Shown: in pieces, positions 5,726 through 57,807 of the stretch
Layout: the number at the start of each line of letters is the position of its first letter
How positions within the stretch are numbered: the first letter of the stretch is position 1
Assembly: GCA_963813065.1 (NCBI GenBank)
Contig: CAWEXP010000002.1
Coordinates: 1-63,334 of the forward strand
Length of the DNA: 63,334 bases
Direction of reading: 5' to 3'
DNA from: Candidatus Kaiserbacteria bacterium
GTDB lineage: Bacteria; Patescibacteriota; Minisyncoccia; Phycocordibacterales; Phycocordibacteraceae
Translations under genes and position numbers: made by a program
The notes under the pieces: model-generated
What the model was told of the DNA's origin: nothing
Seen by the model: only the letters and a program-made list of their open reading frames with translations
The model's database searches: none

Positions 5726-5776
5726 CGGCTACTCCTCTTTTTCTATCCTGCGGAATCCTAGCACACCTTCTTCTAG

Positions 5777-5849
5777 TCCGCCCCCTTGGACTCGAACCAA
5801 GAACCGCCGAGGTATAAGCTCGGTGCTCTAACCATTGAGCTAGGGGCGG
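5777..5849 (-). tRNA. tRNA-Ile(TAT)
   Basis: Acceptor CCGCCCC/GGGGCGG, A73, C4-G69, anticodon arm CCGAG-CTTATAC-CTCGG, T-loop TTCGAGT. Confidence 0.92.
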
Positions 5850-9560: not shown

Positions 9561-9963
9561 GGGGGTGACCGGCTTTGACGGTCTGTACGTTGAAATCGCG
9601 CGACGCAGTGCATGCTCGACTGCCACTCTAATCCTCTCGAGCACCAAACTTGCCAAGAACACCTTTGCAAGCGTGATGTCGCCGTACTTCGGTGCGGCTG
9701 ACTTCGCGTTCGTCTACGCGTAACCCTTACGGGTCTTCGCCTAGCGACGTCTTCCCTCTCCCGGCGCTCACAGCGCGAGGGCGGGCGGAATTATCTGTGA
9801 GATCGGCGACGAGCTTTCCGCCTCGTTTGCCTAAATAAGGAATCGGATAGGAATGGTTTCGTCGATGTTCCTCGCATCCTATCTTAAAACTAACGTCGAC
9901 TATGCGTCGTAGAAGCGCTTCAACTACCAGATTCGGACGTGGGTCCAATTCCCACCATCTCCA
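9561..9963 (+). ncRNA. ssrA: tmRNA
   Basis: 5' GGGGGTGACCGGCTTTGAC; 3' T-arm GTGGG-TCCAATT-CCCAC and CATCTCC-A with G3.U70; internal tag ORF 9652..9723. Confidence 0.93.
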
Positions 9964-9979
9964 CAACAGTAAACACCTG

Positions 9980-52490: not shown

Positions 52491-52614
52491 AACCTTCTCC
52501 TTTTCTAACTTTGCAATGGGTATGGGTCCTCTCAAAGAACCTCTCGACCCAAGGTCAAGATTCCCTACTTTTAACAAATGGATGACGTTTCGTCAATCTC
52601 ATGCTCTAGGCTAC

Positions 52615-52641
52615 AAAAAACCGAGGCAGTGCCTCGGTTTT
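52615..52641 (-). terminator. Intrinsic terminator after the Nudix gene
   Basis: AAAA-CCGAGGC-ACT-GCCTCGG-TTTTTT. Confidence 0.7.
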
Positions 52642-52662
52642 ACACACGTTAAGCGTCTTGTT

Positions 52663-53115
52663 TTAGAGGATGCCGCGCAGGGTGAACCAGAGCTTCCAGA
52701 CCGGCTCGATGTTCAGATCCTTCAGTTGTTCGCGCGTGAACCAGCCCCACCCCTTGGCCTCGTGCGGGTCGACGCGTACCTTCGCACGATCGACCCGGGC
52801 CTGATAGAGGTACCAATGGTGTACATCGCCATGCCGGCACGTATTCCACGGCACTTCGGCTTCCGCCAAGAGCACCACGTCGAAGATCTCGGTCCCGAGC
52901 TCTTCGCGGCCTTCGCGATGCACGGCGGTCAGCGGGTCTTCCCCTTCGTCCACATGGCCCGCCATCCCGGCGAAACCAAGGGGCGGGAACTTGCGATCGA
53001 GGAGCAGAAATTCTCCGGTCGCAGGGTCTTCGATAATCGCGCCGGCAGAGTAGTGCATCGGGCGACCGTCGCTGGCAGTCCCCATCTTTGGTTTGGGGTC
53101 GTGGGTATCCGTCAT
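52663..53115 (-). CDS. Nudix hydrolase
   Basis: AGHVDEGEDPLTAVHREGREELG; AAGGAAG RBS; TTGACA-17 nt-TAATTT upstream. Confidence 0.9.
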   Translation of the reverse strand: MTDTHDPKPKMGTASDGRPMHYSAGAIIEDPATGEFLLLDRKFPPLGFAGMAGHVDEGEDPLTAVHREGREELGTEIFDVVLLAEAEVPWNTCRHGDVHHWYLYQARVDRAKVRVDPHEAKGWGWFTREQLKDLNIEPVWKLWFTLRGIL

Positions 53116-53189
53116 GGTGCTTCCTTTCGTTTCTGGATTGAAATTACTATGCCCAATCCTCATTGTCAAAAACCGTAGCAAATCGAATG

Positions 53190-53229
53190 CGCGAGAGACG
53201 GGACTTGAACCCGCAACCTCCGCCGTGAC
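53190..53229 (-). pseudogene. Orphan 3' half of a tRNA-Asp (from anticodon GTC to discriminator)
   Basis: GTC-AC-GGCGG-AGGTT-GCGGG-TTCAAGT-CCCGT-CTCTCGC-G. Confidence 0.85.
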
Positions 53230-53258
53230 CAACGTAACTTAGGTTTTCTTAACTAATG

Positions 53259-53330
53259 CGCGGGTGACGAGTGCTGACCTCGCGACCTTCGCCGTGACAG
53301 GGCGACGCTCTACCGTTGAGCTACACCCGC
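53259..53330 (-). tRNA. tRNA-Asp(GTC) with non-canonical T-loop
   Basis: Acceptor GCGGGTG/CACCCGC, G73, anticodon arm TCGCC-CTGTCAC-GGCGA, T-arm GCGAG-GTCAGCA-CTCGT. Confidence 0.85.
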
Positions 53331-53331
53331 A

Positions 53332-54012
53332 TTAATTGTCAAGTCGTAAGACTTTCAGCGCTCGTTCTAATTTTCTACGTTTCCGCGGCAGATATAGATT
53401 CGAGGCAAAGCCAGTATGATACATCAGATGATAAAGCGCAACGCTGTCTCTATGGCTCAAGACCAACTCAAATCCTCTTGTTTTTCGCTTGATTGATCCG
53501 CCCCGGACTCCGTGAAGTGTTAGTGCGTGATGTAGGGATTCTAAAAACCCTAGCGAACCGCTCGTAAAGAGGCTCATGAGTATCCAACGTTTTCCCTTTC
53601 GATCGGCAAATTGTAATTTGTTGAAGTACGCGCATCCATCACCATCAAAGTAACCGCGCACGAAATCTCCAAGAAACTGAGCCGGAACTTTAGGAAAACG
53701 CAAGGTATTACTCTTATGTTGAGTAAAGCCCAGTCGAGCTAAATCAGCAAACCATTTTTTGCTTCCGATTTGTAAGCGGTATGCGGTCTTTCGGTTGTCG
53801 CCGCGTTCTCGCGCCGCGATGTGATGACTCGATGTTGTGGCCCGCTGTATGACTTCGAGCACTATTCGATCGGTACTGGTGAACTCAATAAAACATCCGC
53901 CACGACGGTTCTTTAACATTGAGCCGTCCGCGGCGAAGAATCCAAGTACGTACGCCATTTCGGGTGACCATTTCTTGAAGAAGTCCCGATTGAGTGTGCA
54001 ACGCTGTGACAT
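53332..54012 (-). CDS. Double-motif LAGLIDADG homing endonuclease (intact)
   Basis: MAYVLGFFAADGS and FVRGYFDGDGC; stop lies 1 nt before tRNA-Asp. Confidence 0.92.
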   Translation of the reverse strand: MSQRCTLNRDFFKKWSPEMAYVLGFFAADGSMLKNRRGGCFIEFTSTDRIVLEVIQRATTSSHHIAARERGDNRKTAYRLQIGSKKWFADLARLGFTQHKSNTLRFPKVPAQFLGDFVRGYFDGDGCAYFNKLQFADRKGKRWILMSLFTSGSLGFLESLHHALTLHGVRGGSIKRKTRGFELVLSHRDSVALYHLMYHTGFASNLYLPRKRRKLERALKVLRLDN

Positions 54013-54025
54013 AGCTCAATTCTAA

Positions 54026-54063
54026 GACAGGACTTAACTCTAACCAAACTTTACCCACAACCC
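54026..54063 (-). pseudogene. Decayed 5' half of a tRNA-Asp
   Basis: AGTTTGGTTAGAG (D-loop) and C-CT-GTC (anticodon) lie at exact tRNA spacing (positions 14-36); the stems are degenerate. Confidence 0.5.
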
Positions 54064-54071
54064 TACCTTGT

Positions 54072-54148
54072 TGGTGCCGGCACCAGGAGTTGCACCTGGG
54101 ACCTCAGCTTTATGAATGCTGTGCTCTAACTAACTGAGCTATGCCGGC
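54072..54148 (-). tRNA. tRNA-Met(CAT), elongator type
   Basis: Acceptor GCCGGCA/TGCCGGC (paired G1-C72), loop TTCATAA, encoded CCA, T-loop TGCAACT. Ile2 identity is not excluded. Confidence 0.85.
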
Positions 54149-54188
54149 GAAGTGAGGCCCTTGCACAGTAGCAGATTGTACGGGTAGT

Positions 54189-55133
54189 TCAACGGTACTC
54201 GAGCAAGTAGAACCCGGTGATGGCGAAAAAGGTAATGGTGCCCCGCGGACGTGCATAGGCCACGCGATCTCTCTTGCTATGGAAGCGTAGGTTAGAAAAT
54301 ATCTCGCCGTTGAGGAAATTCGGATTACTCCAGCCGACGATAGTCTGAGCGATGACGACGGGCCAGTACTTAAAGCCATCGAACTCGAAATGCCGTTTCG
54401 AGAGTGCGACGATCACCTCGTCCAGCCGCTTCTGCTGATGCGGCGCGAGATGGTGGCGGAAAAGCGAATGGTAGACCACATCGAAGTATGCGGGGGAGAA
54501 ACTGCTTTCAAGGTCGAAAATATCATTCGTGCACATGACGATGAGCACTTTTTGCGGAGTCTTCGCTCGTAGCTCGGCAATATCCTTTTCCGTCACCTTC
54601 CCCGTCTCGACGATTGCGACGTCTGCCCCGAGGCTCTCGAGATTTTTCCGCGCGATCTTCCGCGTAATCGGCGAATTATCGACCGCGACGATGGTCACCT
54701 TGAAAGGGTGTGCTCGGCCAATGGCCCACTGCGCAACTTGTCGGTCGACCTCCATACCGCCCGCGCCGAAATTTGCGATAACCAGATCGCGCTTCTGTAC
54801 GTCGATATAGCGAGTGATGGCGTTGACGAGAGGTGTGATAAGCCCCGGCCGCGGCTGTCGCTCCATCTCGATGAGTCGCGTATGCATCGCGATATCCCAT
54901 TCCTCGACGGGAAAATCCGTGAGCTCGAGGAGCTTTGCACCGTCGAGTTTTGGGGCGGTGGCAACAAGCCACCACACGTACTGGGGGAAGGAGCGGGTGG
55001 CGCGGAGGAATTCAATATTCGCGTCGATCGCGTATCGCTTGTCCGTATACGCAGGATCACTTTTGAACTGCTCCAGTTTCTCCAGTGCCTTCTCTATGCC
55101 TTCTCTCCGCGTCATAGTGCCAGTATAGCCCAT
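54189..55133 (-). CDS. Class I SAM-dependent methyltransferase-like protein
   Basis: IANFGAGG, VAVDNS, NDIFDL, FDVVYHSLFRHH. Confidence 0.7.
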   Translation of the reverse strand: MGYTGTMTRREGIEKALEKLEQFKSDPAYTDKRYAIDANIEFLRATRSFPQYVWWLVATAPKLDGAKLLELTDFPVEEWDIAMHTRLIEMERQPRPGLITPLVNAITRYIDVQKRDLVIANFGAGGMEVDRQVAQWAIGRAHPFKVTIVAVDNSPITRKIARKNLESLGADVAIVETGKVTEKDIAELRAKTPQKVLIVMCTNDIFDLESSFSPAYFDVVYHSLFRHHLAPHQQKRLDEVIVALSKRHFEFDGFKYWPVVIAQTIVGWSNPNFLNGEIFSNLRFHSKRDRVAYARPRGTITFFAITGFYLLEYR

Positions 55134-55135
55134 CG

Positions 55136-56749
55136 CTACTGGGGGAACTCAACGATAAAGGTCGAGCCCTTTCCCTCCCCCTCGCTCTCGGCACGGATGG
55201 TGCCCTTGTGCGCCTCGACGATTGACTTGGCGATGAAGAGGCCGTAACCAGTGGAGTGCACGTTGATTGATTGCGAATTCTTGCCGTGTCCGCCCTCGGT
55301 GAAGAGGCGCTTCTTGTCCTCGTCAGTGATACCGACACCCGTGTCCTTGACCGCAAATAGTATCTTTCCACTCTCTTTCTTCAGCGTGACGTCGATACTG
55401 CCGGTCGGCGTGTAGTTGATCGAGTTCTCGATAAGATTGCGGAATACGTGCTCGCCAATCTCCTTCTGGTCGCCCGTGAAGGTATAGGGCGCGCCGGCCG
55501 CGTCGCACGTGTACGAAAGCGCCAATTTTTTCTGGGCAGCAGAAGGCTTCTCCTTCTCGACGGCATCGGTCGCGACTGCCGCGAGGTCGAAGGGTGCCAC
55601 GAGGAAGGTGGTCGTGCCTTTCTTGAGATTCGATGCTTTGAGAATATTCATGACGCTCTCGGCGCCGGCGCGCGTCTGGGCGAGCGCCGACACGAGAAAA
55701 GGCTGGAGCGTACCGGGCACCGGGCAGAAGTCGCCTTCGAGGATGGCGGCGAAGGCGCTCTGATCTTTGGTCAGATAGCCCTTGACCTCGTGCGTGACGA
55801 ACCGCATCAGCACTTCCTGGCGTTCGTTGGTCTCGGCGAGCTCATCGGCGAGCTGTTGAATCTTCTCGCGCTGCTGGACCTCGCGCACCACGCTCCCGAT
55901 GAGCAGGTAACTGAAGACAAGCACAAGAATAAAAATAGCGACGCGGAACACGAGCTGTGTGACGCTCGTTGCCATCACAATTTCAAGCAGGGTAACACCG
56001 GAGAGTGCCGCCGAGAGGAATTCGGTAGCGATGACCTTCACCTGCAAGAGTCGATGCTTGATAATCGCGTACGCGGTCAGAATGATGTACGGGAAGGTGA
56101 AGAGTCCCGCAAGCGGGGCGAGTTCGGCATGGTTAAGCAGTGCCGGAAACACAAAGTTGAACACGATGATGAGCGTGTACGTGATCGTCGCGCCCGTGAA
56201 AATAAAAAGGTACGGAACCCGCAACTCTTTTTGCGCCAAGAATATCTTGCGCAAGAAGAGGCCGAGGCCTGCCGCGGGAAGCGCAAAGGTCGTGAGGCCG
56301 AAGAGCGCTATCGCCGGACCATTCGCCACTTCCGCCACTGCGCCCGCGGAGAAACCAACCACCGCAATGAACACCAGCGGCGTCAGCGTCGTGAGTGCGA
56401 CAATCGCGGTGAACGGGATGAGCGCATACCGATACCAGCGCGGGAATGCAATCTTCTCTTCGGGGAACACGTAGAAGAGCTGGAACGCGTAGAACGCATG
56501 CACAACCGCGAAGAATACGGCCGCACGCAGAGTCCAGATAATGGCCATGGGATCCGTGAGCCGGAACATGATGAGATTCAACATGCCCCACGCGATGACC
56601 GAGGCCGCCGCGAGAAGGAAGCTTATATTTGTGATGCTCTTACGATTGTTCAGGTACGCGACAAGCCCTAGAGTGCCGTCGCCAATAGCGACGAGACCCA
56701 TCAGAATGATGTCGAGATTCGGAATGCCGAAGAGATTATGTACGTCCAT
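55136..56749 (-). CDS. Sensor histidine kinase with N-terminal 7TM (HisKA_7TM-like) domain
   Basis: About eight TM helices; H-box VTHEVKGYL, NLIENSINYT, DTGVGI, GYGLFIA. Confidence 0.92.
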   Translation of the reverse strand: MDVHNLFGIPNLDIILMGLVAIGDGTLGLVAYLNNRKSITNISFLLAAASVIAWGMLNLIMFRLTDPMAIIWTLRAAVFFAVVHAFYAFQLFYVFPEEKIAFPRWYRYALIPFTAIVALTTLTPLVFIAVVGFSAGAVAEVANGPAIALFGLTTFALPAAGLGLFLRKIFLAQKELRVPYLFIFTGATITYTLIIVFNFVFPALLNHAELAPLAGLFTFPYIILTAYAIIKHRLLQVKVIATEFLSAALSGVTLLEIVMATSVTQLVFRVAIFILVLVFSYLLIGSVVREVQQREKIQQLADELAETNERQEVLMRFVTHEVKGYLTKDQSAFAAILEGDFCPVPGTLQPFLVSALAQTRAGAESVMNILKASNLKKGTTTFLVAPFDLAAVATDAVEKEKPSAAQKKLALSYTCDAAGAPYTFTGDQKEIGEHVFRNLIENSINYTPTGSIDVTLKKESGKILFAVKDTGVGITDEDKKRLFTEGGHGKNSQSINVHSTGYGLFIAKSIVEAHKGTIRAESEGEGKGSTFIVEFPQ

Positions 56750-57807
56750 ATTCGATAGTCGGCTGTTTCTTAGAGGAGTACGCGCTCGGCGCACTCGCGT
56801 GTCCGATGCGGAATGCCGCGACGAGACTCCCCTTCCCGGGAAGGGCCGTGCGTAAAGTGTCGCAGGCGCGCATAATTTCCTTTTCTTGGGCCGCAGTAAA
56901 AGGATGCGTTGGCTCTTCACGCACATACTGTTCGAGATAGAGCATGCCCATGAGTGGCTGGAGCGCGAGCCCGGCACGCGTTGCGCGCAGCCAGACTTGT
57001 TCGAGGATACGCCCGGCGCCGATGAGATGTTCGGGCGTTATGCTCGAAACCCAGATACCACCCACCAGCCCACAGGCGGCATAGCGCGCCCGATTCTGCG
57101 CGGCCACTACTGAGCCGAATCCGAGTCCGCCGAGAAAGCGTGCAAATCCCCACGAAGCAAAGAGCGGAAAAAGAAGTCGCGCTGGAGGATCGAGCTCGAA
57201 GGTGTTGATGTAGAGACCCGATTTCTTTTCATGCTCTTCTGCTTCTGACCAGACGATGTGCGGGAAGAGCGAATTATGGACACGGTTTGCATTGAAAATG
57301 AGGCGATCGTTTACGCTCCACGCACGCGCAATAGTATCAATCGTCGTGCGGTCGGGAGCCAGGACCAGAGTTCCCTCGTTCTGCAGATATGCGGGGAGTG
57401 TGGCAACCGCTCGCTGTTCCTCTGGCGGAAGCGGCGCAGTCGCATAGGCTTTGCGATTGGTGGCGCGGCGACTCATACTCGCGAGCAGCTCTCTCGCCTC
57501 GGCAGTATCAGCTACTGATGGCGTGAAGTCGATACGCGCAACGCCACGCGTGTGCGGCTCGGGTAGAAGCGAGACCGTGGCGGAGAATCCCTGCGCGGCA
57601 GAGGCGATGACGATATTCTCGATGAGTGCACCGAGCGCGATATAGGAGCCGCGCTGTTTGAAGTTGTAGACGGTTGAGTCGCTCTCGGGCACTGAGACAG
57701 ACGATGAGTGATTCTCCCTCGATACGGAACTTCCACGGTTGATAATTGTGTCCGGAAGGCGCTTGGATGGCGACCGCGAGTATCTCTTGGATAAGGTCAG
57801 TATTCAT
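56736..57807 (-). CDS. Nitroreductase-family (Acg-like) protein (frameshift near 57705)
   Basis: QAPSGHNYQPWKF, RRATNR, GRILEQVWLRATRAGLALQP, FRIG. Confidence 0.8.

Follow-up and report, generated by a model that had tools for sequence, protein, structure and literature searches.

A LAGLIDADG homing endonuclease family with a fixed tRNA-Met/tRNA-Asp address in CPR/Patescibacteria, and a tRNA-Asp remnant consistent with gene displacement

Group I introns that interrupt the anticodon loop of bacterial tRNA genes are known classically from tRNA-Leu (UAA), tRNA-fMet, tRNA-Ile and tRNA-Arg. Homing endonucleases may also act from outside introns: T4 SegB, a GIY-YIG enzyme, is a free-standing endonuclease responsible for intronless homing in a phage tRNA gene cluster (PMC2330249), and collaborative homing is exemplified by F-CphI with the cyanophage psbA intron and by T4 mobE with the nrdB (I-TevIII) intron (PMC3984707, PMC2790892, PMC6083498). 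Genomes of the candidate phyla radiation (CPR), a group of ultrasmall bacteria, are rich in LAGLIDADG elements, and their tRNA group I introns have been mentioned in passing (PMC8172020); LAGLIDADG endonucleases such as I-ShaI are embedded in introns or insertions of CPR ribosomal RNA (rRNA) genes (PMC11270868). A limited search of the literature turned up no account of a tRNA-Asp-linked LAGLIDADG family, a tRNA-derived element upstream of such a gene, or a group I intron in tRNA-Asp. Here, we analyze a locus on contig CAWEXP010000002.1 of a Candidatus Kaiserbacteria genome (the window, 63,334 nucleotides (nt) in all), where an intact gene for a predicted LAGLIDADG homing endonuclease stands between tRNA-Met(CAU) and tRNA-Asp(GUC). 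The reading that we lean towards, with moderate confidence, is that this free-standing endonuclease is tied to tRNA-Asp, and that a canonical tRNA-Asp gene was broken in this lineage and replaced by a variant, leaving its 3' end as a scar.

All elements of the locus lie on the minus strand (Table 1). Along that strand, tRNA-Met is followed by a 59-nt gap, which houses a tRNA-Asp-like fragment (GGTTAGAG-N6-CCTGTC at 54045-54026), and then by the endonuclease open reading frame (ORF). A complete, intron-less tRNA-Asp(GUC), hereafter the passenger, begins one base past the endonuclease stop codon, and a spacer separates it from an orphan 3' part of another tRNA-Asp. The endonuclease gene is free-standing: it is flanked by two tRNA genes, not contained in an intron or intein, and the Rfam models of group I and group II introns found no match in 52600-54600. 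A first-pass annotation, made from the sequence alone, had described this arrangement, with an endonuclease gene devoid of an intron and physically tied to a complete tRNA-Asp, and all of its elements are indeed present on the minus strand at about the positions it listed; the spacer it reported also exists, although at a length of 29 nt rather than 27. The same layout, orphan included, appears in two independent assemblies, namely contig L001 and a single 188-nt contig from public reads (run X1).

The 226-amino-acid (aa) product matches PF14528 (E=3.2e-12, 47 bits against a cut-off of 22.5). Its two LAGLIDADG motifs, LGFFAADGS (D29) and GYFDGDGC (D123/D125), are invariant across 28 homologues, acidic residues included. 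A sequence search against the PDB returned no match at E<0.01, and a fold search was used instead. The AlphaFold2 model (predicted local distance difference test, pLDDT, 83.9; predicted template modelling score, pTM, 0.82) adopts a two-domain LAGLIDADG fold, with two alpha-beta-beta-alpha-beta-beta-alpha domains that make up a DNA-binding saddle, which Foldseek related with a probability of 1.00 to I-Tsp061I, I-SmaMI, I-OnuI, I-AniI and I-SceI; the neighbours also include the bI3 maturase, and I-AniI is itself bifunctional. Motifs and modelled fold together point to a single-chain, two-motif LAGLIDADG homing endonuclease with predicted cleavage activity. The GC content is about 47% over the gene and about 56% in its flanks.

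More than 3,000 homologues of this endonuclease were found, and every named one belongs to the CPR/Patescibacteria. We surveyed 80 loci fetched from species-representative genomes, as well as three further close homologues (L096-L098). In 77 of the 80 loci, tRNA-Asp(GUC) directly follows the endonuclease ORF, which ends at or inside the 5' end of the tRNA; the stop codon lies within tRNA-Asp in 52 loci, mostly as a TAG formed by U8-A9-G10. tRNA-Met is located upstream, on the same strand, in 49 of the 80, and the layout of L096-L098 is identical to this family address. The endonuclease gene of the window is no isolated insertion but belongs to a family whose address, between tRNA-Met(CAU) and tRNA-Asp(GUC), is fixed.

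The default mode of ARAGORN missed the tRNA-Asp gene in 27 of the 80 loci, and its intron mode recovered them. The tRNA-Asp beside the endonuclease is interrupted between U35 and C36 by an insertion of 190-240 nt in 27 of the 80 loci (L002 and L004-L007 among them) and likewise in L096 and L098, which lie outside the 80. The 5' exon ends in ...CCTGT (U35), the insertion starts with AGACGTGCAGC and ends in G, and the 3' exon starts with CACG; P1 (CUGU/GCAG) and P10 (CGUG/CACG) pairings are evident from the sequence. The Rfam model Intron_gpI reached its gathering score in L002 and L004, and eight more loci matched it at E-values from 1e-9 to 2e-5. A group I intron that lacks an ORF is therefore present next to the endonuclease gene in these relatives and absent from the window region, and the adjacent tRNA-Asp of the remaining two thirds has no intron. 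The first-pass annotation had proposed an element that rescues its host instead of splicing; the absence of splicing suits the window, which has no intron, but does not extend to the relatives whose tRNA-Asp carries one. Both tRNA type and intron status are scattered across the endonuclease tree, and in a neighbour-joining tree the endonuclease of the window groups among intron-bearing loci. Tree parsimony was also considered as a guide to whether the displaced gene had an intron and was set aside, the resolution of the neighbour-joining tree being too weak.

Similar insertions are not confined to tRNA-Asp. ARAGORN in intron mode reported anticodon-loop insertions of 180-300 nt in further tRNA genes of these CPR loci, including tRNA-Arg GCG (L004, L007, L014, L015, L025), tRNA-Thr GGT (L013, L047, L079), tRNA-Met (L015, L028, L044, L045, L050, L071) and tRNA-Leu CAA (L019, L047, L070), and Intron_gpI matches the insertion in the tRNA-Met of L045 with 62 bits. 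In the CPR phylum, tRNA genes with group I introns are apparently common, and default tRNA scans miss these introns.

We then turn to the two tRNA-Asp pieces on either side of the endonuclease gene. The upstream fragment keeps the GGTTAGAG-N6-CCTGTC spacing of real tRNA-Asp genes; its 12-base motif is unique in the window, where 0.11 matches would be expected by chance with one mismatch allowed, and cmscan reported nothing over the fragment at E<=10. It had been taken for the decayed partner of the orphan, such that GTC would mark both edges of one 796-bp insert (54025-53230). Comparison with the family argues otherwise. The same motif precedes the endonuclease gene in about 37 of 81 loci, and those loci have no orphan; the consensus, A.TGGTTAG..TAATGTCCTGTCA(C/T), has the spacing of tRNA-Asp nt 17-38. 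On position weight matrices, the fragment of the window scores +31.4 bits against 26 other fragments and -9.3 bits against real tRNA-Asp 5' parts, to none of which it is more than 57% identical. In many relatives, moreover, the resemblance to tRNA does not stop at the anticodon but reaches about nt 39-43 (CACGCGG or the like). Because this non-coding element is well kept among loci whose proteins are only 43-70% identical, the fragment is under selection and no recent product of decay. These comparisons identify it as an old, conserved, family-wide and tRNA-Asp-derived part of the 5' control region of the endonuclease gene. A staggered GTCA cut, deduced from both flanks, was also considered and dropped, since the fragment extends to about nt 43 in relatives.

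Further conservation is seen close to the start codon (ATG or GTG), where TAnnnT lies 6-7 nt upstream in 28 of 30 fragment-bearing loci, compared with 2.2 in shuffles. Such conservation suggests that the TAGAAT hexamer of the window may act as a promoter for a leaderless endonuclease messenger RNA. A separate case is found in L068 (L068:2900-3000), where a near-complete 5' half (GCAGCCGTGGTGTAGCCCGGTTAACAC...CCTGTCA) lies upstream of the endonuclease gene and belongs to another tRNA-Asp type than the tRNA downstream of it, which suggests a younger, independent disruption.

The orphan extends from G34 to the discriminator, G73, of tRNA-Asp, and was found by an nhmmer profile built from the intron-bearing genes of relatives. 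It agrees with the 3' part of the L014 tRNA-Asp at 39 of 40 positions and with that of L010 at 38 of 40. When compared with contigs that hold intact tRNA-Asp genes of other organisms, the match ends exactly between nt 33 and 34, and the start of the orphan is located two nt from the intron site of the family, U35/C36. The earlier claim that the 3' half of a canonical tRNA-Asp was displaced, with a break in the anticodon loop, is thus well founded. Since the orphan is nearly identical to a working gene and the fragment is 57% or less identical to any tRNA-Asp, the two differ in age and origin; this unequal decay, together with the family-wide occurrence of the fragment, leads us to reject a single event as their common source. 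The orphan fits the scar of a displaced canonical tRNA-Asp, in agreement with a homing-type break and repair in which tRNA-Asp travels with the endonuclease gene.

The passenger agrees with the orphan at only 30 of 40 positions; the two diverge in acceptor strand and T-loop, which the first reading of the sequence had already noted. It represents a rarer type of tRNA-Asp, with a short D-loop (AACGGTA) and an odd T-loop (GTCAGCA), which also adjoins the endonuclease gene in L009, L018, L067 and L071. Other metagenomes contain a 75-nt copy that is identical but differently flanked, in two settings: behind a diverged endonuclease C-terminus, and, on contig B, with a hairpin directly upstream and apparently no endonuclease gene in the 30 nt visible. 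Similarly, the viral contig L095 (IMGVR_UViG_3300009979_000072, minus strand, ~1545-1620) encodes a tRNA-Asp with the rare D-loop and T-arm of the passenger, in a viral tRNA cluster without an endonuclease match; its neighbour, according to ARAGORN, is a tRNA-Arg that contains a 987-nt insertion. The acceptor stem of the passenger is perfectly paired, and the type is coherent, non-chimeric and found intact elsewhere. Judged by these occurrences, the passenger is a natural type of tRNA-Asp, not peculiar to the cassette, and is presumed to be the working gene.

The passenger had further been proposed to be a cleavage-resistant allele. Only the 27:43 pair and nt 48 set its anticodon arm apart from that of the orphan's parent, and no resistance is therefore apparent should the anticodon loop be the target; the same tRNA type is, in addition, apparently found without an adjacent endonuclease (contig B and L095). 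The junction of the 3' end of the endonuclease gene with the variant tRNA, GACAAnTAAT/GCGG, is common to L009, with 87% identity over the last 30 aligned nt, which fits joint inheritance of that block. The start of the spacer resembles the tRNA-Asp trailers of relatives (attag/agttag), and the spacer is probably the trailer of the variant tRNA. We also considered it as a remnant of a group I intron and rejected this, since the intron profile does align into the spacer but 559 of 1000 shuffled spacers score as well.

Taken as a sequence of events, the displacement of a canonical tRNA-Asp would have proceeded as follows. The endonuclease would target the anticodon-loop region of tRNA-Asp genes, and a canonical tRNA-Asp, with or without an intron, would have been broken at or beside the intron site in this lineage. 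The 5' part of the broken gene would then have been replaced by a copy from a related locus, comprising at least the variant tRNA-Asp and its 29-nt trailer; the endonuclease gene and the upstream fragment were probably copied in as well. The right-hand join would have been illegitimate, because the T-arm of the variant offers too little homology, and nt 34-73 of the old gene would have been left as an untouched orphan.

Several points weigh against this account. In two thirds of the relatives, the tRNA-Asp beside the endonuclease has no intron and an ordinary anticodon arm, and would have to escape self-cleavage by some other means; the target could lie elsewhere, for instance in the T-arm, in which the variant is distinct and a second duplication is seen in many relatives. 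The likeness to the NUDIX promoter of relatives starts about 20 nt below the orphan, which marks a synteny breakpoint, and L090, L092, L093 and L094 have an NrtR-like gene in place of the tRNAs upstream of the NUDIX gene. The orphan lies at this break, and so an unrelated rearrangement could have made it. No empty site or element-free sister genome was found, and the polarity of the event is therefore inferred: a metagenome scan with the upstream 314-aa gene yielded only two truncated loci, homologues of this gene (about 60% identity) do not stand beside tRNA-Met/tRNA-Asp, and relatives reached through the downstream NUDIX gene have the NrtR-like gene upstream and no tRNAs. A search of public reads for population variants gave only tRNA-sized pieces, with no joints and no variant allele, and no RNA runs were found. 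Neither the window nor any of the fetched loci gave an informative match to the spacer, and a generic promoter and terminator scan of the minus strand upstream of the ORF called nothing, the -35 hexamer TTGGTT being weak. Finally, overall DNA identities are star-like, at 58-67%, and a maximum-chi-square-type test gave a breakpoint signal near nt 625 of the ORF (Fisher p ~1e-9, uncorrected); we do not use it as evidence of recombination, since a derived C-terminus in the comparison group could explain it equally well.

A more sweeping interpretation, which we advance only tentatively, sees in the family a phylum-wide selfish system with thousands of members. Here, the endonuclease would be fused by address and reading frame to tRNA-Asp, the tRNA-Asp-derived fragment would serve as its own promoter or operator and possibly as a homing-site decoy, the conserved flanking tRNA-Met and tRNA-Asp would provide homology arms for its spread from lineage to lineage, and protection would come from a group I intron at the cut site or from variant tRNA-Asp alleles.

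An alternative that we consider unlikely, although it deserves to be weighed, dispenses with endonuclease action: the orphan would stem from a tandem tRNA-Asp duplicate with a 5' deletion, from a rearrangement breakpoint, or from an attachment-site (att-type) relic of an element whose integrase belongs to the class aimed at the anticodon loop. tRNA genes are common sites of rearrangement and integration, the orphan lies within about 20 nt of the NUDIX synteny break in a neighbourhood whose gene order differs as well, and the 3' end of tRNA-Asp is partly duplicated in other ways among relatives. Exact duplication of the segment from the anticodon to the 3' end is reportedly the work of integrases of the anticodon-loop class, a result ascribed to Williams in Nucleic Acids Res in 2002. 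However, the locus has no integrase ORF, and only 29 nt separate the tRNA from the orphan. The working tRNA is no chimera but a coherent type with a perfect acceptor stem, intact elsewhere, and the break falls within 2 nt of the intron site used beside this endonuclease family in 27 relatives.

It is rather improbable that the gene is domesticated, for instance to serve the tRNA-Asp group I intron as a maturase or to bind the fragment as a regulator, and is inherited vertically with the tRNA cluster, the orphan being mere debris. Such a role would suit the extremely conserved address, the overlap of ORF and tRNA and the conserved non-coding element upstream; the bifunctional I-AniI and the bI3 maturase are among the structural neighbours, and intron-less neighbours with ordinary anticodon arms have not been destroyed. 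Yet the catalytic acidic residues of both motifs are invariant, two thirds of the loci lack an intron that a maturase could act on, tRNA type and intron status are dispersed over the endonuclease tree, GC content dips over the gene, and an identical variant tRNA-Asp exists both with and apparently without the gene upstream.

We regard it as very unlikely that, as in the one-step model of the first-pass annotation, one tRNA-Asp was cut at its anticodon and received a 796-bp cassette of endonuclease gene, resistant tRNA-Asp and spacer, with the fragment and the orphan as the two halves of the cut gene. This would account for tRNA-Asp-like sequence on both flanks with GTC at the inner edges and for the exact tRNA spacing of the D-loop and anticodon motifs in the fragment, and the near-complete 5' half in L068 indicates that splitting events may occur. 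The fragment, however, is a conserved element of the family, present in about 37 loci without an orphan; it scores +31 bits as a fragment and -9 bits as a tRNA-Asp, passes the anticodon to about nt 43 in relatives, and at 57% identity or less, next to 39 of 40 for the orphan, implies a very different time of decay. Its acceptor, D-stem and anticodon-stem positions, moreover, do not match the partner that the orphan requires (GCGAGAG...CCGCC). As for removal at the RNA level, by splicing out either the 3' part of the passenger plus the spacer (69 nt) or the whole 796-nt insert so that the outer pieces form a tRNA, the intron mode of ARAGORN does link the 5' part of the passenger with the orphan into a tRNA-Asp that contains a 69-nt insertion, and this fusion takes on a tRNA fold whose acceptor stem has one T:T mismatch, but such removal is extremely improbable given that no group I or II model matches in 52600-54600, that the introns of the family, at 190-240 nt, are far longer than 69 nt, that the passenger is itself a complete tRNA (59 bits), and that ARAGORN finds no tRNA in a fusion of fragment and orphan, even at a relaxed threshold.

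The 3' end of tRNA-Asp is duplicated in many relatives in another manner. In 20 of 76 loci, tRNA-Asp and its terminator are followed by an inverted copy of the last ~20 nt of the tRNA. In 11 of 76 loci and in L098, an exact direct repeat of the last 14-22 nt (T-loop to discriminator) lies about 100 nt beyond the inverted copy; it is sometimes preceded by GTGAC (in some 4-5 examined loci) and is followed by a second, similar trailer and terminator. Examples are L052:3921-4130, L079:3806-3980, L056:3714-3915 and L098, downstream of its tRNA-Asp; the window has none of these copies. Both kinds of copy co-vary with the acceptor sequence of each lineage, and no Rfam family matched these regions at its gathering threshold. 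They could represent a structured RNA, or else a miniature element whose insertion into the T-loop supplies a new 3' end.

Table 1 Features of the tRNA-Met/tRNA-Asp locus, in positions of the window
Feature	Coordinates	Strand	Evidence and remarks
tRNA-Met(CAU)	54148-54072	minus	ARAGORN; Rfam RF00005, 63.9 bits; upstream neighbour
tRNA-Asp-like 5' fragment	54026..54063	minus	conserved core 54046-54026 = T-GGTTAGAG-TTAAGT-CCTGTC, D-loop through anticodon
-10-like hexamer TAGAAT	54019..54024	minus	6 nt before ATG; putative promoter, from conservation
LAGLIDADG homing endonuclease ORF, 226 aa, intact	54012-53332	minus	ORF call, PF14528, motifs, predicted fold
Complete intron-less tRNA-Asp(GUC) (passenger)	53330-53259	minus	ARAGORN; Rfam 59.1 bits
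Spacer CATTAGTTAAGAAAACCTAAGTTACGTTG, 29 nt	53258-53230	minus	between passenger tRNA-Asp and orphan
Orphan 3' part, 40 nt, tRNA-Asp nt 34-73	53229-53190	minus	nhmmer E=1e-9; 39/40 identity to L014
Junction with NUDIX gene promoter region	53116..53189	minus	alignment with L090, L092, L093, L094

Some further features of the window and its relatives deserve mention. The genes at 54189-57692 (minus strand) are ordered nitroreductase-like gene, histidine kinase, 314-aa gene; in L084, L086, L088 and L089 the 314-aa gene precedes the histidine kinase, and this swap reflects a local rearrangement next to the tRNA locus. The T-loop of tRNA-Met is unusual, reading TGCAACT in the window (54072-54148, minus strand) and TGCAAGT in L097 (L097:1359-1433), with a G where U55 is expected. 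A tRNA-Ile with the anticodon TAT (UAU) is encoded at 5776-5849 (minus strand), an uncommon bacterial means of reading AUA. Lastly, Rfam places a transfer-messenger RNA (tmRNA) at 9561-9966 (plus strand) with 79 bits, and ARAGORN reported none in the window; the tmRNA gene may be atypical.

These results bear on annotation as well as on the evolution of mobile elements. In many CPR genomes, gene finders will overlook tRNA-Asp or call it wrongly, and tRNA fragments beside these endonuclease genes should not be taken for simple pseudogenes. A single endonuclease family is found beside intron-bearing, intron-less and variant alleles of one tRNA. If the proposed mechanism is true, the family would offer a large chromosomal natural experiment on the co-evolution of homing endonucleases, group I introns and essential tRNA genes, would make the collaborative-homing route to mobile introns testable over hundreds of lineages, and would provide a compact LAGLIDADG enzyme whose target is a universally conserved tRNA-Asp sequence. 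Should the phylum-wide system also be real, these loci would constitute a very large set of natural chromosomal intermediates on the proposed path from a free-standing endonuclease and an ORF-less intron to a mobile intron, and the orphan of the window would be a footprint that marks the cut site.

The system in the window is best read as a variant of intronless or collaborative homing. The intron-bearing relatives have the layout of collaborative homing, and the orphan starts two nt from their intron site, as would be expected if the enzyme cuts there. The known cases, however, are found in phages, while this family resides in the cellular chromosomes of CPR bacteria; F-CphI is of the Endo VII type and mobE of the HNH type, whereas the enzyme here is a LAGLIDADG protein; and the host gene is a tRNA, with the window itself lacking an intron and the cut at the intron site putative. 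With SegB it shares a free-standing endonuclease gene among tRNA genes, which would spread with a flanking tRNA by break repair and co-conversion, but SegB is of another enzyme family, has a phage host, and lacks a tRNA-derived upstream fragment, an overlap of ORF and tRNA, and a linked intron. I-Ssp6803I, which is specific for the tRNA-fMet anticodon, and the classical tRNA introns likewise have the anticodon loop as homing target and group I intron site, and the introns of our relatives share with the classical ones the 5' exon ending in U, the terminal G and the P1/P10 pairings; here, in contrast, the intron does not contain the endonuclease gene, which stands upstream of the tRNA; the tRNA in question is tRNA-Asp, and the intron sits at 35/36. 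I-ShaI has the phylum-level host group and the enzyme superfamily in common with this family, but it is embedded in rRNA, and PMC11270868 makes no mention of tRNA, whereas the family described here is free-standing and tied to tRNA-Asp. Integrase-borne islands, which enter a tRNA gene and supply a new 3' part, also resemble the window, in that an intact tRNA is followed by a displaced copy from anticodon loop to 3' end, the outcome of an attL/attR duplication; the window, by contrast, has no integrase, its copies are 29 nt apart and identical at 30 of 40 positions, and its intact tRNA is non-chimeric.

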